The notes beneath the pieces are model-generated. The model made no database searches, was not told the origin of the DNA, and saw nothing but the letters and a program-made list of their open reading frames with translations. Shown here in pieces: positions 14,307 to 63,601 of a stretch of 64,000 bases of DNA. Location: NCBI GenBank assembly GCA_964634215.1, contig CAZWKR010000009.1, positions 10,764 to 74,763 of the forward strand, given 5' to 3'. Made by a program: the position numbers and the translations under genes. Numbering within the stretch: position 1 is the stretch's first letter; each line of letters opens with the position of its first letter. The stretch comes from an uncultured bacterium (GTDB lineage: Bacteria; Fidelibacterota; Marinisomatia; Marinisomatales; JAHJCW01).

Positions 14307-15467
14307 CTAAATCAAATCTGCGAGACTTTTACTCAAATCAAATTTATATTTTTTGACGTCAATTTTGGGGTCATGCCATACACCATAATTGCCTGCCATG
14401 ATCAATTTTTGGATATATGATTTTGTTAGAGCTTCTGTACATTTATTATCGTACCAACGAATATCGATCTTTGAACTTGTTTCACTTATAGCGCCAAGCA
14501 TGGCGGATAAGAAAGTTTGACGATTCTCGGTATCGGTATTGATCTTGCAAAATCCAGCTTCGATCAATCCTTCAATCTGAGCCCAATCTGTTCCAACAAA
14601 ATCCAACCACTTCTGTTTGGAATTTGTTGGAACATTCATTTTATCTAATTGTTCAACAGCATATTTGACTACTTCGGGATAAAGTGTAGAAGCACCATGT
14701 GCTACAAATGTTATTTCAGGATTAATTCCATCAGCAACAGCAAGCAATTCATGTGCTAACTTAATATTTAATTTAACTTTCGAACCCGGTTTGCCTTTAT
14801 TTGGTCCATGCATAGTTCCAATTGTTGGCGCTAACATTAAAACACCGCTGTGTCTTAAAAATTGATCTAATTCATCTGGATTTGTATATGTTGAAAACTC
14901 AGATTTGGTGTCTTCATCTTCTTCGCCTGCTAAAACTCCTAATTCACCCTCCACCGAAAGTCCAAGTGGATGCGCCATATCGACAACTTCGCGAGTCAAG
15001 TCAGCATTATCCTGCAATGGCATTGCTCGCTTTTTTACCTTATCGGTAGAGTTGTCTGCCATGACACTTGTTAAATGCTGAACGGATGCTTGCACAACTC
15101 GCCGTCCTGCATCGGAGATGTAATCTCCGTGATCCAAATGGGTAGCAATTCTCACATTAGACCTAGCCGCTTTTTTAGCGATATAGTCAGAAGCAATTTC
15201 CAATCCATAAATAGCATCGCCCTCGCCAAAATGTTTTAGTGCCGAATTCGATACTGCTAAAAGTCCTGAGGATCCCAATAACTCAAATGCTTTGAACGCC
15301 GCATTTATTCCCTGAAAATGTGTAATGTTGAATGCTGGCACAGCATACCGCTTACCTTTTTGATTTCCCTTTTCTCCATTTTTCGCTTTTAAACACAATG
15401 CATGCGCAGTCATCATATTTGTTGGAAATCTTCTATCTGTATTTAATTTGGGGGGTAATTTTTTCAT
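14307..15467 (-). CDS. fba: Class II fructose-bisphosphate aldolase (long form)
   Basis: Class II motifs are present: VPAFN, THLDHG, SVMADNS, VEGELGVLAGEEDE, GTMHG, CKINTDTE. Confidence 0.75.
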   Translation of the reverse strand: MKKLPPKLNTDRRFPTNMMTAHALCLKAKNGEKGNQKGKRYAVPAFNITHFQGINAAFKAFELLGSSGLLAVSNSALKHFGEGDAIYGLEIASDYIAKKAARSNVRIATHLDHGDYISDAGRRVVQASVQHLTSVMADNSTDKVKKRAMPLQDNADLTREVVDMAHPLGLSVEGELGVLAGEEDEDTKSEFSTYTNPDELDQFLRHSGVLMLAPTIGTMHGPNKGKPGSKVKLNIKLAHELLAVADGINPEITFVAHGASTLYPEVVKYAVEQLDKMNVPTNSKQKWLDFVGTDWAQIEGLIEAGFCKINTDTENRQTFLSAMLGAISETSSKIDIRWYDNKCTEALTKSYIQKLIMAGNYGVWHDPKIDVKKYKFDLSKSLADLI

Positions 15468-36675: not shown

Positions 36676-37818
36676 TTACGCAGTATTTGTGCTCACATTC
36701 TCTGAAAGAATGTCATCAATTATCATTTTTATTCTATTTGACGTTTTACCATCACATTTATAAAAATATTTTTCCTTATCTTGCATTACGTTATCAATCC
36801 TATCTTGCGTTGGATTTAATGCATTATAAATAGCATCTTTTAACTGTAAAGGAGAATCTATATGAATAAATGAATTCTTTAGGAATTTATCATCGCGTAA
36901 TAGTAGCGGTTCATCATCAGTATGTTTCAAATTATTATCATTTAAGTCATAAACTATACCAACTTTATTAGTAATTAAGAATTCTGAAATAGCACCCGAT
37001 GCCTCTGAAATAATAGTATCAGCAACAGCATACAACGGAACAATATTATAGTTGTCACGAGGAATTAATACAGCATGATCATACTGCGATATTCTTTTTT
37101 TAACACTCTTGCTCTGATTGCGATTAGCATATTTACCCATCCATGAATAATGATGAAGCTTGATAATTAAATTATAATCTTTTGTAGCATTAAATATTTC
37201 GTCCTTTAAATCATATAACGAAGTCGGTTTATACGTTGGTGCATAAAGGATTGTTTTCTTGCCATGATCAAGGCCAAGCTTGGATAATATTTTTTTCTTA
37301 TTAAACTTGTTATTAATAATAGGATCTATTTTTGGAAAGCCTACAATTTTAGTTTCTGAAGAACCAAGGCAATCTGCATCGGTTAGTTTATCGACTGCAT
37401 ATTGGCTTTCTGCAAATATTAAATATTTATCGTTTTTATGTTTTCTCAGTTCCCTAAATGTAACAGATTTATTAAAGATCGGACCATGATAAATCATACA
37501 AATTATACTACTCTGATAATTGCTGCCTTTCACTACATCTGAAACAAAAACAACATCGAACTTTTCATTTTTTTTTGCTGTTCTTACATTGTTATCGATA
37601 AATTTTTTTAAATACTCCTTATTTTTTTTTCTCCTAAATATTCCAAAATGATAATCAAAATCATGAGATAATGTAACTGCAATATCATAGCTTTTATCAT
37701 GACTAAATATTTCAATTACCGGTTCTAATGCAGGTAAATGGTATAAATAATTTAATTTGAATAATATTTTTTTTGATTTGGTCATTTCTATTGGGAGACT
37801 AACTGTCGAGTTTTCCAT
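36676..37818 (-). CDS. CDP-glycerol glycerophosphotransferase family protein (TagB/TagF-like)
   Basis: Glyphos_transf hallmarks are present: ILYAPTYK, HHYSW, and ISEASGAISEF near the C-terminus. An alternative start at 37785 (MTKSKK) would remove the 31-nt overlap with the upstream gene. Confidence 0.75.
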   Translation of the reverse strand: MENSTVSLPIEMTKSKKILFKLNYLYHLPALEPVIEIFSHDKSYDIAVTLSHDFDYHFGIFRRKKNKEYLKKFIDNNVRTAKKNEKFDVVFVSDVVKGSNYQSSIICMIYHGPIFNKSVTFRELRKHKNDKYLIFAESQYAVDKLTDADCLGSSETKIVGFPKIDPIINNKFNKKKILSKLGLDHGKKTILYAPTYKPTSLYDLKDEIFNATKDYNLIIKLHHYSWMGKYANRNQSKSVKKRISQYDHAVLIPRDNYNIVPLYAVADTIISEASGAISEFLITNKVGIVYDLNDNNLKHTDDEPLLLRDDKFLKNSFIHIDSPLQLKDAIYNALNPTQDRIDNVMQDKEKYFYKCDGKTSNRIKMIIDDILSENVSTNTA

Positions 37819-56456: not shown

Positions 56457-57131
56457 TTATATCCAGTTTTTTCGGAGAACCTGAAAATATCGACGTGTAT
56501 ATTTTATATCTTGATTGGAAACTAAATCATTTAAAATGGAATTAACGGTTTGTCTGGAGGTGGCTGTTAAATCGGCAATTTCTTGATGTGTGAGGAACGG
56601 TCTTACCATCCATCCGTCAATCATTTCTTTGCCAAATGTTTTTGCATATCGCTTTAAAAAAGCGACTACTCTTTCGTGGGCATCTTTAAATACTAAATCT
56701 TCAACATGAGCTTGAATTTTTCTAATTCTTAACCCAATAAATTTGTTAATGCTGAGATTCATTTTGGGATTGTTTGCTAACATTTCTTGAAACATTGTTC
56801 GGTTAATTGAGCAAATCACAGCATCCTCTACAACTTCAGCTATATTTTCACGTTTTTCTTGACCTAAAATAGCACTTTCGCCAAAAATCTCACCGGGACC
56901 GATAAGTTGAAGTGTCATTTTTTTACCATCCTCAGATACTCGCGATATTTTTACTTTACCCTCTTTCAGCATATATATATTATCACTGCGTTCTTCTGGA
57001 AAATAAATTATTTCACGTTTGGATGATTTCGTCATTTTACTTTTTTGATCCATCATTTCCATGGAAGATTCATCCATTCCTTTTATCAAATTAAAATTTT
57101 GTAAGTACCAAATCTTTGTCTTTTCAGCCAT
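56457..57131 (-). CDS. Crp/Fnr-family transcriptional regulator (no FNR-type Cys cluster)
   Basis: N-terminal cNMP-binding-like beta-roll (IYMLKEGKVKI...GPGEIFGE) and C-terminal HTH LTHQEIADLTATSRQTVNSIL. No N-terminal Cys motif. Confidence 0.8.
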   Translation of the reverse strand: MAEKTKIWYLQNFNLIKGMDESSMEMMDQKSKMTKSSKREIIYFPEERSDNIYMLKEGKVKISRVSEDGKKMTLQLIGPGEIFGESAILGQEKRENIAEVVEDAVICSINRTMFQEMLANNPKMNLSINKFIGLRIRKIQAHVEDLVFKDAHERVVAFLKRYAKTFGKEMIDGWMVRPFLTHQEIADLTATSRQTVNSILNDLVSNQDIKYTRRYFQVLRKNWI

Positions 57132-57439
57132 AATTAACCTTTTATTACTGATTAAATGTAAAATATTTATACGTCATATTATAAATAATTATTAATATCC
57201 AGAGCCCTATGTAGATAATGACATCTTTTTATATTGATAAGTTCAATCGTTTACTTTACATTAGCCTTAGCGTTCACTTGATATTGTTAGATACTTATGA
57301 GACTATAAAATAATTTGGAATTGCAAATAAAATTAACTCAGAACATCAATAATCGCAGTGGCTCTCAAAAAGGCACCATCCATCACTCAAAGTTGAATTG
57401 TTCTGCCTCAACTAAAACACCCCAAGGAAATATTTAAAA

Positions 57440-58516
57440 ATGCGACGAATCATATTATTGGTATTCACTTTCTCTCTTTTAATTAATGCACAGGATTGTA
57501 AATCCAAAGACAAACTAACTATACAACCCTATGGATATTTTAAATTAGATATGATCTACGATAGTAATCCTATGTCTATTGGTAATTTCGCACGTTGGGT
57601 TTTACCACAATCCACAGATGATGCTATTCCGACCACACATATCACCGCCAATGAATCAAGATTAGGATTCTCAGTCAATAAAGGTGACATTTCTGGTAAA
57701 ATTGAATTTGATTTTTTTGGCGTTGGGGGGGGGGAAAACAAACCCGGCTTAATGGTTCGTAAAGCTTATGTTCAAGCGAAACTTAAGAATTTTACAATCC
57801 GCGCTGGCCAGGATTCCGACGTTATTTCACCTTTAGTACCTTCAACGATAAATTATACTGTAGCTTGGTGGGCAGGAGACATCGGATACCGACGACCAAT
57901 GGTTAAATTATTTAATACAGATAATGGGTTTACATGGACTGCTGCAATTGCACGAAATATCGGAGGTGATATAAATGGCGATGGACTTGATGATGGTACT
58001 GTAGCTGTAATTCCCGAATTCCAAGGACGACTTGCATATAAATTCTTCAAAAAACATACTGTTGGTATTTCAGGTCATTATGCACAAAGAGACACTCTTG
58101 GAACTGATGGAAAATATAATGCATGGTCTGCTAATATTGACCTAAGTGCAAAAATTAATCAATATCTGACTCTGAATAGTAGTTTTTATACCGGATTAAA
58201 TACGGCTTCTATGCTCGGGGGAATCGGGAATGCAAGTACAATGGACGGTATTGGTTCACAGGGTGGATGGCTCAATATAAAATTTAATCCGAATAATTAT
58301 TCAATTTCTACTGGGATTGTAATGGATGATCCCTGCGATTGTGATTTAAATGATGGTGCAAGAAGTAAGAATACTACAATTTTTACTAATATCTATTACG
58401 ATATCCTTCAAGGGTTTTTAGTTGGATTTGAAATATCATATTGGGCAACAGAATATAAAAATATAGATACTGCAACCGCCCTACGAGGTCAAGTTGCATT
58501 CCGTTATAATTTTTAA
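57440..58516 (+). CDS. Porin-like outer-membrane beta-barrel protein
   Basis: Signal peptide MRRIILLVFTFSLLINAQ. Alternating strand pattern. The C-terminus ...VAFRYNF ends in Phe. It lies 62 nt upstream of the hydrogenase small-subunit gene. Confidence 0.6.
   Translation: MRRIILLVFTFSLLINAQDCKSKDKLTIQPYGYFKLDMIYDSNPMSIGNFARWVLPQSTDDAIPTTHITANESRLGFSVNKGDISGKIEFDFFGVGGGENKPGLMVRKAYVQAKLKNFTIRAGQDSDVISPLVPSTINYTVAWWAGDIGYRRPMVKLFNTDNGFTWTAAIARNIGGDINGDGLDDGTVAVIPEFQGRLAYKFFKKHTVGISGHYAQRDTLGTDGKYNAWSANIDLSAKINQYLTLNSSFYTGLNTASMLGGIGNASTMDGIGSQGGWLNIKFNPNNYSISTGIVMDDPCDCDLNDGARSKNTTIFTNIYYDILQGFLVGFEISYWATEYKNIDTATALRGQVAFRYNF
57725..57734 (+). repeat. Homopolymeric G10 tract inside the porin ORF
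   Basis: Read directly: cgtt GGGGGGGGGG aaaaca, encoding FGVGGGE. This is the only G/C run longer than 6 that I saw in the window. Confidence 0.9.
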
Positions 58517-58578
58517 ATTGATGAAAACAATACAAAACTTAAACAATAGTATTCCTGAATTAATCAAGGAGGAACAAC

Positions 58579-59727
58579 ATGTCTAAACAGCAGATTAAAC
58601 AAGCTTTTGCTGAAAATATAGCACAGAACTTTGATGCTTACGGATTTTCCCGTCGTGATTTCATTAAATTCTGTACGGCAATCACTGCTACAATGGGTTT
58701 ACCATTCAGCATGTCTAAATTGATTGCAAAAACAATTGAAGACCCCGCACGACCACCGGTTATTTGGTTGCATTTTCAAGAATGCACAGGATGTACAGAA
58801 TCACTTTTACGAGCAACACATCCAAAAGTTGAAACTCTTGTATTAGATCTAATTTCCTTGGATTACTCAGAAACACTATGCGCTGCTGCCGGACATCAGG
58901 TTGAGAAATCATTGCATGATTCCATGGAGAAAAATAAGGGTAAATATATATTGGTGGTTGAAGGTTCAATACCAATGAAAGATGATGGAATTTATTGTAA
59001 GGTAGCTGGTAAAACAGCTTTACAGTCCGTAAAGGAAGTCGGTGAACATTGCGCAGCCGCAATTGCGATTGGTTCATGCGCGTCATGGGGCGGAGTACAA
59101 TCAAGCGGACCAAACCCAACAGGTGCTACACCACTCCATAAAGTTCTCGAAGGTAAACCTATTATTAATATACCTGGCTGTCCACCTAATCCATACAATT
59201 TCCTTTCGACAGTTTTGTATTACTTGACTTTAGGAAAACTACCGGAGCTTGATTCTAAAGGTAGGCCAAAATTTGCTTACGGCAGATTAATCCATGAAAA
59301 TTGCGAACGGCGTCCGCATTTTGATGCTGGTAGATTCGCAGACCAGTTTGGCGATGATGGTCATCGTGAAGGATGGTGTTTATACAAACTCGGCTGCAAA
59401 GGACCAGAGACATATGCAAATTGCCCATCTATCTTATTCGGTGATGTTGGCTCAGGTTCTTGGCCTGTTGGCACTGGACATCCATGTTTTGGTTGTTCTG
59501 AAGAAGGTGTGGGTTATACCAAACCGATACATGAACAAGCTGAAGTAAAGACATTTACACCGGGAGCAATTTATCCCGATATACATTCTGAGAAAAAAGG
59601 CGGTGTGAATGTAACAGGAGCGGCAGTTACTGCCGGAGCAGCAGTGGTTGGAGCAAAGCTGGTATCCGACGTATCAAAAAAATTGGGTGAGCACGACCAA
59701 AAAGAATCTTCAACTACTAAATCATAG
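58579..59727 (+). CDS. hybO: [NiFe] hydrogenase small subunit (Tat-exported, C-terminal membrane anchor)
   Basis: Twin-arginine signal SRRDFIKF. FeS ligand motifs are present: ECTGCTES, GSCASWGG, PGCPPNP, CERRPHF, C.YKLGCKGP, GHPCFGCSE. Hydrophobic C-terminal tail. AAGGAGG RBS. Confidence 0.9.
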   Translation: MSKQQIKQAFAENIAQNFDAYGFSRRDFIKFCTAITATMGLPFSMSKLIAKTIEDPARPPVIWLHFQECTGCTESLLRATHPKVETLVLDLISLDYSETLCAAAGHQVEKSLHDSMEKNKGKYILVVEGSIPMKDDGIYCKVAGKTALQSVKEVGEHCAAAIAIGSCASWGGVQSSGPNPTGATPLHKVLEGKPIINIPGCPPNPYNFLSTVLYYLTLGKLPELDSKGRPKFAYGRLIHENCERRPHFDAGRFADQFGDDGHREGWCLYKLGCKGPETYANCPSILFGDVGSGSWPVGTGHPCFGCSEEGVGYTKPIHEQAEVKTFTPGAIYPDIHSEKKGGVNVTGAAVTAGAAVVGAKLVSDVSKKLGEHDQKESSTTKS

Positions 59728-59736
59728 GAGGAAGTT

Positions 59737-60726
59737 ATGAGTATTGGTAGAAGAGATTTCTTTAAGGTGATTTCGGCCGGTGCTGTTACTGCAGCTACAG
59801 CCGGTTCGGTATTTGCCCGCGAAAAAAAGACACTAGCGCCTGATGCTGTCGGCATTCTTTACGACGCTACACTTTGTATTGGTTGTAAAAATTGTGAACG
59901 TGGCTGTAAAGAATATAATGATATGCCGATTGAACAAACGGATAGAGTTGATGATTTGAATGTACCCAAAATATGGGACAATTCAGATGATCTTACAGCA
60001 AAAACACTGAACAAGATCAAATTATATCGCAATGGTAATGCTTCAATCAAAGATCGTGAAGCAGATGGATATTCATTTGTGAAACGCGCCTGTATGCATT
60101 GCGTAGATCCGGATTGTGTATCGGCTTGCCCGGTGACCGCATTAAGCAAAGATGAGGTAACAGGAATTGTTACCTATGATGAAAAAGCATGTATCGGTTG
60201 CCGATATTGTCAGGTAGCATGTCCGTTCAATGTTCCCAAGTTTGAATGGGACGAAGCATTTCCGAAAATTGTAAAATGTCAAATGTGCGAACATAAACAA
60301 GAGGAAGGCGGAATTCCCGGATGCTGTTATTATTGTCCGACCGGCGCTTCAATGTTTGGTAAAGTAGAAGATTTGTTGGATGAAGCACATCGGCGAATTC
60401 AATTAGCTGAAGGTACATACTACGATTTTCCAATCCGTAGTATGGATTCGGATCAAAAATCCACTTTAAAAGCAAAAAAGTATGTTAATTATGTTTATGG
60501 AGAAAAGGAAACCGGCGGTACACAATATATGGTTTTAAGCGCTGTTCCATTCCATAAATTGGGATTACCAACATTACCGGAAAGTTCATCATCCTCAAAA
60601 TCCGAAACAATACAACATACAATATATAAAGGATTGATCGCACCCGGAGCATTATTAGCAGGACTACTCGTTGCAGCATATCATGGTACCAAATCACATA
60701 ATGAAAGCGAAGAAGGGAGGTCATAA
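59737..60726 (+). CDS. hybA: HybA-like 4Fe-4S ferredoxin-type electron-transfer subunit (Tat signal, C-terminal TM)
   Basis: GRRDFFKV Tat motif. Four CxxCxxCxxxC-type clusters (CIGCKNCERGC, CMHCVDPDCVSAC, CIGCRYCQVAC, CQMC...C.YC). TM helix near the C-terminus. Confidence 0.85.
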   Translation: MSIGRRDFFKVISAGAVTAATAGSVFAREKKTLAPDAVGILYDATLCIGCKNCERGCKEYNDMPIEQTDRVDDLNVPKIWDNSDDLTAKTLNKIKLYRNGNASIKDREADGYSFVKRACMHCVDPDCVSACPVTALSKDEVTGIVTYDEKACIGCRYCQVACPFNVPKFEWDEAFPKIVKCQMCEHKQEEGGIPGCCYYCPTGASMFGKVEDLLDEAHRRIQLAEGTYYDFPIRSMDSDQKSTLKAKKYVNYVYGEKETGGTQYMVLSAVPFHKLGLPTLPESSSSSKSETIQHTIYKGLIAPGALLAGLLVAAYHGTKSHNESEEGRS

Positions 60727-61874
60727 TGAGTGAAAACAAAGCACTTGGTGGTAAGATAATCACCAAACCATTCATCATTTTGGCTGCGATTGCAGGTATT
60801 GCCGGAATTCTATTAATCAAACGTTTCATATTCGGTTTAGGAGCGGTAACGAATCTTTCTGATGGATATCCATGGGGAATGTGGATCGTGTATGATGTCT
60901 TGGTTGGAACCGCAATTGGCTGTGGCGGTTATGTGATGGCAATTTTAGTTTACATATTTAATAAGGGTCAATATCATCCAATGGTACGTCCGGCACTATT
61001 AACAAGTGTATTCGGATATACGATGGCGGGAGTCTCAATTTTTATTGATGTGGGACGATATTGGCAATTATATAATGTTTTCTTACCATGGCATACCAAT
61101 CTTAATTCAATAATGTTTGAGGTAGCATTCTGTGTTGCAACTTACGTATTGGTTTTATGGATAGAGTTTTCTCCTGCATTTCTTGAGAAATTCAATAAGA
61201 CCAAAATGCTCGCATTTATGAATAAAACTCTATTCATATTTATTGCAATTGGAGTGTTGCTGCCAACAATGCATCAATCGTCATTAGGTTCATTAATGAT
61301 AATTGCCGGGAATAAACTATCAGCTCTATGGCAAACGGGTTGGCTACCGGTTCTTTTCTTAATATCATCAATTACCATGGGTTATGCAGTTGTGGTTTTT
61401 GAATCGCTATATTCGTCATCAGGGTTTAAACGACCATTTGAAACGCCGCTATTAGGAAAAATTGGAAAATTACTGGCATGGCTGTTAGTGGTCTACTTGG
61501 TAATACGATTCGGCGATTTAGTGTGGCGTGGAAAATTGGGACTCATATTTACTGATGGATGGGTAAATAGTATAATGTTCATAATTGAAAATGCCCTATT
61601 TATAGTTCCAATGATATTGCTTTTTTCAGAGAAACACAGACGCAGTACCAAATCGCTATTTTTAGCGGCAGTGCTATTATTATTAGCCGGAGCTGTATAT
61701 CGCTTTAATGCTTTCCTAGTCGGATTCGATCCAGGTATGGGCTGGCATTATTGGCCATCGGCTAGCGAGTTGCTTATTACAATCGGCATTATAGCCATGG
61801 AAATTATGGCCTACTTGGCGTTTGTAAAATGGCTGCCCGTTTTACCTAATATTAAACATTCAACATCATCATAG
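60726..61874 (+). CDS. hybB: HybB/NrfD-like integral membrane quinone-interacting subunit
   Basis: 382 aa, polytopic (about 10 TM). Its position between the hybA-like gene and the large subunit matches the E. coli hyb order. TAATG overlap with the upstream gene. Confidence 0.75.
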   Translation: MSENKALGGKIITKPFIILAAIAGIAGILLIKRFIFGLGAVTNLSDGYPWGMWIVYDVLVGTAIGCGGYVMAILVYIFNKGQYHPMVRPALLTSVFGYTMAGVSIFIDVGRYWQLYNVFLPWHTNLNSIMFEVAFCVATYVLVLWIEFSPAFLEKFNKTKMLAFMNKTLFIFIAIGVLLPTMHQSSLGSLMIIAGNKLSALWQTGWLPVLFLISSITMGYAVVVFESLYSSSGFKRPFETPLLGKIGKLLAWLLVVYLVIRFGDLVWRGKLGLIFTDGWVNSIMFIIENALFIVPMILLFSEKHRRSTKSLFLAAVLLLLAGAVYRFNAFLVGFDPGMGWHYWPSASELLITIGIIAMEIMAYLAFVKWLPVLPNIKHSTSS

Positions 61875-61885
61875 GGAGTTTAGCA

Positions 61886-63601
61886 ATGGCAAAAAGAATT
61901 ACAGTAGATCCAATCACAAGAATAGAAGGACATTTACGCATAGACTGCGATATTAGTGGTGGTAAAGTTTCCAATGCTTGGTCATCAGGACAGATGTTCC
62001 GAGGTATTGAGGAAATATTATTAGGACGCGATCCGCGTGATGCATGGATATTTACACAAAGATTCTGCGGAGTCTGTACAACCGTTCATGCAATAGCATC
62101 GGTTCGTACAGTAGAGAATGCTCTCGAAATGGAAATTCCGGTGAATGCACAATTTATCCGAAACATGATTATCGCGGCACATGGTATTCACGATCATATT
62201 GTGCATTTCTATCATCTATCTGCACTTGACTGGGTAGATATAGTATCGGCATTATCCGCTGATCCAAAAGCAACATCTAAACTGGCGCAAAGTCTATCAC
62301 CCTGGCCCAATAATGGCGCGATAGAATTCAAAGCGGTGCAGGATAAACTAAAGAAATTCGTTTCATCCGGACAATTAGGGATATTTGCGAATGGCTATTG
62401 GGGGCATCCGGCAATGAAGTTACCACCGGAAGCTAATTTAATGGCAGCCGCGCATTATTTAGAAGCATTTGAATATCAACGGAAAGCAAATAAAATTGTT
62501 GCAATCCTTGGTAGTAAAACACCGCATATCCAAAATTTAGCGGTTGGTGGTGTTTCAAATCCAATTAACCCTGATAGTCAATCAGCACTAAATATGGAAC
62601 GGCTGTTCTATGTCAAAACATTGATGGATGAATTACAAGACTTTATCCGCAATGTATATCTCGTTGACTTAGCAGCAGTTGGTGCTTTGTATGCGGGTTG
62701 GTTGCCATATGGCAAAGGTGTTACCAATTATCTTAGTGTACCTGATTTCCCGATGGATACAAAAGGCACAAAATTTGGTACTCCGGGTGGATATATTTCG
62801 AACGGTGATATCGGTTCATTTAAAGCTGTCAACTCATTCCAGAATAAATTCTTCATGAATGGTGTAAAAGAAAGTGTTAAACACTCATGGTATGAAGGAG
62901 ACGAAACATTACATCCGTACAAAGGCGAAACTAAACCATATTATACTGATTTTAAAGAAAATGACAAATACTCCTGGGTAAAATCTCCGAGCTTCAATGA
63001 TGAACCGGCACAGGTAGGACCGCTGGCAAATGTACTTGGAATGTTTGCAGCCGGTCACAAGCCAACTCAGACATATGCAACTCTTGCTCTAGAAAAGATA
63101 AGTGCGATTGCCGGCACAACTGTTGGAATTGACGCGCTTCATTCAACTCTTGGACGTCATGCTGCTCGCTGTGTAAGAACCAATGTTCTAATTGATGTAT
63201 TGAAAGAAAACTATAATGCATTAATAAGTAATATTGCGACTGGTGATATGGAAACATTTAATCCACCGACCTTCCCGAAGGGTGAGCAGACCGGATTCGG
63301 TTTCCACGAAGCACCTCGAGGTGTATTATCACATTGGATTGTTATTAAAGATGGTAAAATTAAAAACTATCAAGCGGTAGTTCCTTCAACATGGAATGCC
63401 GGTCCACGTAACCAAGATGATAAATTGGGACCGTACGAAGCTTCGTTGGTTGGCAATCCAATCGCTGATGCGGAAAGACCATTAGAAATATTGCGTACAA
63501 TACATTCATTTGATCCATGTTTGGCATGTGCTATTCACGTTCACGATAATAAAAGGCAAGATACAATCCGTGTCAAAACATTATCTAGATTCCCAAGTTA
63601 G
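61886..63601 (+). CDS. hybC: [NiFe] hydrogenase large subunit
   Basis: N-terminal RIEGH and RFCGVCTTVH (L1/L2 motifs). C-terminal DPCLACAIH is followed by a 20-aa tail, the substrate of the maturation protease. Confidence 0.95.
   Translation: MAKRITVDPITRIEGHLRIDCDISGGKVSNAWSSGQMFRGIEEILLGRDPRDAWIFTQRFCGVCTTVHAIASVRTVENALEMEIPVNAQFIRNMIIAAHGIHDHIVHFYHLSALDWVDIVSALSADPKATSKLAQSLSPWPNNGAIEFKAVQDKLKKFVSSGQLGIFANGYWGHPAMKLPPEANLMAAAHYLEAFEYQRKANKIVAILGSKTPHIQNLAVGGVSNPINPDSQSALNMERLFYVKTLMDELQDFIRNVYLVDLAAVGALYAGWLPYGKGVTNYLSVPDFPMDTKGTKFGTPGGYISNGDIGSFKAVNSFQNKFFMNGVKESVKHSWYEGDETLHPYKGETKPYYTDFKENDKYSWVKSPSFNDEPAQVGPLANVLGMFAAGHKPTQTYATLALEKISAIAGTTVGIDALHSTLGRHAARCVRTNVLIDVLKENYNALISNIATGDMETFNPPTFPKGEQTGFGFHEAPRGVLSHWIVIKDGKIKNYQAVVPSTWNAGPRNQDDKLGPYEASLVGNPIADAERPLEILRTIHSFDPCLACAIHVHDNKRQDTIRVKTLSRFPS

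Follow-up and report, generated by a model that had tools for sequence, protein, structure and literature searches.

In the porin gene that stands directly before the uptake-hydrogenase operon of this Marinimicrobia genome, a run of ten guanines (G10) lies in frame, and we give about an even chance to the reading that it is a young, lineage-specific homopolymer, probably slippage-prone, at present in the ON state and probably not selected as a switch. An incidental "proto-contingency" tract of this kind is more likely than a switch built and maintained by selection. Coordinates refer to the window, that is, the whole stretch of 64 kb of DNA that was analysed. The first-pass annotation of the window had proposed the run as a candidate phase-variation switch. 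The anatomy of this proposal (tract, frame and truncation) holds, whereas its functional part is unsupported: the codons of the nine closest orthologues are interrupted and there is no second tract in the window. Since position, frame, truncation, porin and downstream operon were all confirmed, the prerequisites of a poly-G switch are present.

Position, coding and rarity of the tract

The tract (GGGGGGGGGG) was read directly at positions 57725-57734 of the plus strand, in the context GCGTT-GGGGGGGGGG-AAAAC. It makes up porin codons 96-98 (GGG GGG GGG) together with the first base of codon 99 (GAA, E99) and is preceded by GTT; the start codon (ATG) of the ORF lies 285 nt upstream. The encoded peptide is V-G-G-G-E, and the sequence agrees with the earlier reading of the run as gtt ggg ggg ggg gaa, about 95 codons into the porin ORF.

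The window has a G+C content of 34.1%, and G10 is its sole G/C run longer than 6. The next longest are one G6 at 15450 and three C6 at 13535, 19529 and 49714, as had been claimed with a maximum of 6 nt for all other runs, and no second G/C tract of at least 7 was found within the 64-kb window. Runs of at least ten G are expected 5e-4 times per 64 kb under an iid model and 4e-3 times under a first-order Markov model. Moreover, GGG is the rarest glycine codon in the genes of the window (107/1240, 8.6%, counted over 52 ORFs taken as a crude gene set). The probability of three consecutive GGG codons is about 6e-4, which for the six runs of at least three glycines in the window amounts to about 0.004 expected cases. 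The related loci of low GC, 243 kb in all, contain G/C runs of 7 and of 8, three each, and none that reaches 9. Compared with the runs in the window and in its relatives, G10 is a true outlier.

The tail of run lengths is heavier than the Markov model predicts, so that a handful of such tracts per genome would not be extraordinary. Indeed, these loci have one G/C 8-mer in about every 80 kb. One C8 run is found inside hypF of a Marinimicrobia relative (L009, 7656-7663), and the presence of such 8-mers in ordinary genes of relatives indicates that tracts arise without an obvious role in surface variation. A distant porin homologue, of 36% identity and from a genome of 48% GC, has a further C8 run (L036, 4942-4949) in its N-terminal extension, where the run codes for A-P-P-A.

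The tract-bearing gene encodes a predicted DcaP-like porin

The gene (57440-58516, plus strand) encodes a DcaP-family outer-membrane porin of 358 amino acids with a signal peptide and a predicted 16-strand beta-barrel. Its description as an outer-membrane porin gene in the first-pass annotation is upheld by a Pfam DcaP match and by a 16-strand model whose best PDB match is DcaP. The match to PF19577 (E=1.7e-8, 34.4 bits against a gathering cutoff of 27) covers only residues 16-146. The N-terminus is a hydrophobic signal sequence with a helix predicted at residues 2-16. The AlphaFold model, built with 28 homologues, is a 16-strand beta-barrel of moderate confidence (mean pLDDT 70), and a Foldseek search matched it best to DcaP (6eus_A, E=4.9e-14, TM 0.66-0.68), with classical trimeric porins next. 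A PDB sequence search with the 28-sequence profile returned no porin match. Signal peptide and DcaP-like barrel together place the modelled product of the tract-bearing gene at the interface between cell and environment.

The protein resembles DcaP of A. baumannii (6EUS, PF19577) in being matched best by its fold and in scoring above the Pfam gathering threshold, and relatives of the porin carry the NCBI name "DcaP family trimeric outer membrane transporter". It differs from DcaP in sharing only 16% sequence identity, with a Pfam match limited to residues 16-146, in lacking the long N-terminal coiled-coil extension, and in being located in a hydrogenase cluster. Before strand 1 the mature N-terminus has only about 8 residues, and inspection of the model revealed no long coiled-coil. 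Among the DcaP proteins, DcaP3 takes up di- and tri-carboxylic acids (PMC12338516). Homologues of the porin (n=170) come mostly from Marinimicrobia/Neomarinimicrobiota MAGs, and the remoter ones from Latescibacterota, Planctomycetota and Acidobacteriota. The closest of them shares 87% identity with the porin, which is the sole member of its 90% cluster.

The tract falls into the loop formed by codons 93-103 (F-G-V-G-G-G-E-N-K-P-G; 57716-57748, plus strand), which connects strands 3 and 4 and contains the motif DF[YF]G-x-GG-x-ENK. In the AlphaFold model, residues 95-101 are a stretch of low pLDDT between the strands 84-92 and 104-114. By the porin topology rule, with a periplasmic N-terminus and the long connections outside, this stretch would be the short extracellular loop L2. 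G94, E99, N100 and K101 are invariant in 28/28 sequences, whereas residues 96-98 vary among G/S/A/T/D across the 28 (GGG, GSA, TDA, PSV and others), and in some family members the loop is one residue shorter or longer. In-frame changes of 3 nt at the tract, in either direction, would probably do no harm. The motif is conserved across the 120 homologues listed; since this conservation is family-wide, the glycines are ancestral and predate the tract, while the homopolymer is not ancestral.

Conservation of the long loops L1, L3, L4 and L6 equals that of the barrel strands, and no arms-race or hypervariable-surface signature was seen in the porin loops among the 28 homologues. Loop conservation of this sort fits a substrate-specific channel better than a hypervariable target of phages or of immunity. 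Among relatives, identity is 62-87% for the porin, 83-97% for the regulator described below and 77-91% for the hydrogenase subunits; small neighbouring genes (doxX-like, thioredoxin-like) have diverged as much as the porin. The predicted loop L3 (DSDVISPLVPSTINYTVAWWAGDIGYRRP, residues 125-153) is near-invariant across the 28 homologues, with a mean column identity of 0.92, which is consistent with a constriction loop that sets a specific substrate.

Products of slippage and search for variants

By computed translation, loss of one G gives a product of 103 aa ending in ...GVGGGKTNPA* (G9), and gain of one G gives a product of 107 aa ending in ...GVGGGGKQTRLNGS* (G11). The prediction that a change of 1 nt would truncate the porin is thereby confirmed. 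Judged by the AlphaFold model, both products lack 13 of the 16 strands. After the tract the alternative frames end within 5-9 codons, and the first in-frame restart, M105, has no signal peptide.

An exact look-up of the G8, G9, G11 and G12 products and of the C-terminal fragment from M105 among about 15 billion proteins returned none of them; it had next to no power, since all assembled sequence of the population stems from one sample and the porin is alone in its 90% cluster. When the N-terminal 98 residues were used to look for truncated porins, two short proteins came up, P0121 and P0122, with no tract in either. Both were set aside. P0121 comes from a 1.4-kb scaffold on which it is overlapped by a gene call on the opposite strand, and the protein is without the tract. 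For P0122, encoded at locus L104, the porin frame is disrupted at several points, none of them at a homopolymer, and the regulator is split into two calls. The damage at this locus (1172-2710 of PVMK01123599.1), with its non-homopolymer frameshifts in the porin and the adjacent regulator in two gene calls, may reflect either a poor assembly or a decaying region with pseudogenes. With the small-subunit protein of the hydrogenase as an anchor for contigs of the same species, only the Logan contig described below was found, and the regulator is not on record.

Codons at the tract position in relatives

For 102 related loci, retrieved from collections of metagenomes and genomes, we compared the codons that spell the motif. 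The nine closest orthologues share 70-87% amino acid identity with the window porin, the eight closest 82-87%. At the tract position the codons are interrupted in 9/9 of them, and V-G-G-G-E is kept in 7/9. The comparison of orthologous porins, which had been suggested as a check of the switch, has thus brought out the same Gly-rich turn with interrupted codons in seven of the nine. This is one half of what had been named as refuting the switch, the other half being a lack of variation. The glycine triplet is spelled GGT GGT GGA in L002, L005 and L083, GGG GGT GGA in L003, L004 and L006, and GGC GGC GGA in L084; the peptide is altered in L007 (I-S-G-G-E) and in L082 (V-G-V-G-E). No G-run longer than 7 was found at the tract position in about 100 related loci, the longest being one of 7 in a distant homologue. 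What separates the window tract from GGG GGT GGA is one T to G and one A to G change, both synonymous and at third positions.

The tract is accordingly not retained in the relatives compared, the nearest of which has a porin of 87% identity. Read at the codon level, this result takes away any argument from conservation for a switch. We do not regard it as fatal to the switch reading, since tracts in known phase-variable species are often strain-specific.

Genomic neighbourhood

Upstream of the porin, a divergent gene for a regulator of the Crp/Fnr family is located on the minus strand (56457-57131; Pfam cNMP_binding and HTH_Crp_2). A regulator of 83-97% identity stands beside the porin in 16 loci, and one more distant locus has a regulator of 69% identity; in the relatives, the two genes are adjacent at every locus for which upstream sequence was recovered. 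The region between them, which includes the porin leader, comprises 308 nt in the window (57132-57439, plus strand) and belongs to the long class. In an alignment of 14 upstream regions the intergenic lengths fall in two classes of about 150 and about 306 nt, with L009, L010, L012, L084 and L088 on one side and L003, L005, L008, L015, L017, L020, L085 and L086 on the other. Within the long class, about 155 nt of the porin leader are conserved, at about 57245-57400 of the window. A search of the leader against Rfam gave no match at E<=1, a scan for terminators and RNA folding of the leader brought out nothing either, and promoter-like hexamers are not in excess (12 versus 9.5 +/- 3.1 in shuffles).

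Downstream, the stop codon of the porin ends at 58516 and the ATG of the hydrogenase small subunit begins at 58579. The spacer between them (58517-58578, plus strand) is 62 nt long, the very distance given in the first-pass annotation, and carries a strong RBS (AAGGAGG). No terminator-like site, no stable hairpin (fold versus shuffles, z=0.54) and no Rfam match were found within these 62 nt, so that co-transcription of porin and hydrogenase is plausible. Since co-transcription looks likely, the idea of polarity is plausible too, and we infer from this that an OFF allele could possibly be polar on hydrogenase expression.

The [NiFe] hydrogenase operon (58579-63601, plus strand) follows the porin directly, as had been noted, and by its Pfam domains all four genes belong to a Hyb-type periplasmic uptake set. 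They encode the small subunit (58579-59727; Oxidored_q6 and NiFe_hyd_SSU_C, with the twin-arginine motif SRRDFIKF in the translation), a HybA-like 4Fe-4S protein of the ferredoxin type (59737-60726; Fer4_11), a HybB/NrfD-like membrane subunit (60726-61874; NrfD) and the large subunit (61886-63601; NiFeSe_Hases, E=2e-221), all on the plus strand.

In the relatives the hydrogenase structural genes follow the porin at 57-99 nt in L010, L018, L084 and L088 and at about 540-580 nt in L082 and L085; in nine loci the porin is followed directly by hypA-hypB(-hypF-hypC), without structural genes. The porin thus belongs to a conserved hydrogenase neighbourhood, though not all loci couple it tightly to the gene for the small subunit. 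Regulator, porin and hydrogenase genes form a neighbourhood that is conserved in Marinimicrobia MAGs (window 56457-63601; L002-L020, L082-L088, L104). In it, the outer-membrane channel stands first, ahead of the hydrogenase genes.

Support of the tract by assembly

A contig of the Logan assembly (L001, run SRR8146440, 9313 nt) matches the window over its full length with zero mismatches, G10 included, and runs through the tract without a break at the site. The unbroken contig weakly suggests that G10 is dominant in the SRR8146440 sample. Both assemblies contain reads of the same run and are independent as assemblies, not at the read level. This shared origin, in a genome that is a MAG, is what could speak for a consensus error, with G10 an artefact of sequencing or assembly in place of an interrupted run (such as GGG GGT GGG) or of one of another length. 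The many frameshifts of L104, another MAG contig of the porin family, show as well that the quality of such assemblies varies. We consider an artefact quite improbable, since the run keeps the reading frame exactly and yields the conserved V-G-G-G-E, and two different assemblers agree over 9.3 kb with zero mismatches. The poly-G read tails produced by two-colour chemistry are not known to yield an in-frame run of 10 nt flanked by correct gene sequence. A literature search found no mention of SRR8146440. The tract offers a well-defined site at which the raw reads of this run can be inspected.

Origin and possible role of the tract

The reading that we prefer starts from a gene with the spelling GGG GGT GGA, in which the tract would have come about when the second and third of these codons (GGT and GGA) each became GGG, both changes being synonymous and at the third position. 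They would have fallen in the codons of the conserved Gly-rich loop F-G-V-G-G-G-E-N-K of a DcaP-type porin, whose gene stands first in the Crp/Fnr-linked uptake-hydrogenase cluster of this Marinimicrobia genome. The assembled allele is the in-frame ON state. High-frequency slippage at a run of ten G is established knowledge, the actual rate depending on the mismatch-repair status. The run would be a hot spot for slipped-strand mispairing, giving rise to reversible frameshifts of one nucleotide in either direction at a rate that should be far above that of base substitution. Variants of this kind would make only an N-terminal fragment of 103 or 107 aa, and thus no porin, whereas a change of 3 nt would add or remove one loop glycine and nothing else. 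The site would thus behave like a phase-variable switch at some rate.

Comparable tracts are known from several pathogens. Contingency loci of Neisseria and Haemophilus have poly-G/C tracts in coding regions or promoters, for example hmbR, hpuA, opc and porA. The window gene shares with them the class of outer-membrane protein genes and the same logic of homopolymer slippage. In contrast, these are host-adapted pathogens under immune selection, whose tracts are documented to vary among isolates, while the lineage of the window is free-living, uncultured, of marine or sediment origin and known from one assembly. C. jejuni is not known to have mismatch repair. High switching rates are established for its polyG/C tracts of 8-11 nt, those of G8-G9 included, and an extension from G8 to G11 raises mutability 10-fold (PMC3401435). 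The window tract resembles the polyG/C genes of C. jejuni in being an intragenic G/C homopolymer of 8-11 nt in the frame of a surface-related gene of an AT-rich genome, and in that slippage by one nucleotide toggles between a full-length and a truncated product (PMC3401435, PMC4965091). However, C. jejuni has many tracts (about one in every 55 kb), which are found again in other strains and whose switching rates have been measured, whereas the window has a single tract that is absent from all relatives examined.

These precedents lend weight to the view that the tract is an evolved contingency locus, kept by selection for stochastic ON/OFF switching of the porin, a reading which we regard as possible but somewhat unlikely. 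Cells might benefit by evading a phage or predator for which the porin is the receptor, or by bet-hedging on permeability; hydrogenase expression might change as well, by polarity. In tract length (G10), in the position of slippage (codons 96-99 of 358, in an outer-membrane beta-barrel) and in its interface-exposed gene class the site resembles known contingency loci, and changes of one nucleotide truncate the product cleanly. Moreover, an incidental origin has to account for three of the rarest glycine codons in a row in a genome of 34% GC, which drift alone would rarely produce (about 6e-4 per glycine triplet; about 0.004 cases are expected in the window, where it is the only long G/C run); both substitutions oppose the preferred glycine codons and the A+T-rich composition. 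Selection should also remove a long frameshift-prone run from a conserved gene, except where switching does no harm or is of use, and gene class and position in the first third of the ORF match classical contingency loci exactly. The short hydrogenase spacer without a terminator-like site, through which an OFF state could be polar, and the lower identity of the porin among relatives as compared with the regulator and the hydrogenase subunits point in the same direction, but the small doxX-like and thioredoxin-like neighbours are as diverged as the porin, and its long loops are conserved with no arms-race signature visible. Selection for switching is further opposed by the interrupted codons of every orthologue examined, by the lack of a second tract in the window and by the OFF-state product not being on record, the latter in a look-up of low power on a one-sample population. 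In the library searched, no paper was found to link Marinimicrobia to simple-sequence-repeat switching; two that mention both do not connect them in title or abstract.

Another programmed role of the G-run, such as ribosomal or transcriptional slippage for a second product or a structural element in DNA or RNA, has in its favour nothing beyond the existence of the run, and we give it a negligible chance. Programmed frameshifting and a G-quadruplex at the site were rejected, since the alternative frames end after 5-9 codons in short fragments without a barrel and a single G-run cannot form a quadruplex; in addition, the region has no Rfam match and the run is not conserved in any relative.

In its fullest form, the contingency-locus reading would have a poly-G switch that stochastically removes the porin heading the uptake-hydrogenase operon. 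It would give porin-less cells resistant to phages or predators, with the capacity for H2 oxidation co-varying by polarity within a clonal population. We hold this full scenario to be unlikely. If it is true, Marinimicrobia, a marine phylum of uncultured, free-living bacteria, would have its first described contingency locus. Real switching would extend homopolymer phase variation beyond host-adapted pathogens to an abundant uncultured lineage of ocean and sediment and would tie surface variation to energy metabolism; the mechanism would be classical, and at most the phylum would be new for homopolymer switching. As a caution, a single base could flip the annotation of the porin in MAGs between intact and "pseudogene".

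Elsewhere in the window, two T9 runs are located 54 nt apart at 37568-37576 and 37622-37630, reading as A9 on the coding minus strand. The lengths of T-runs in the window decay smoothly (six of 8, two of 9), and the pair is no statistical outlier. It sits in the 5' part of a gene of the CDP-glycerol glycerophosphotransferase family (36676-37818, minus strand), which is adjoined by a second gene of the same family.
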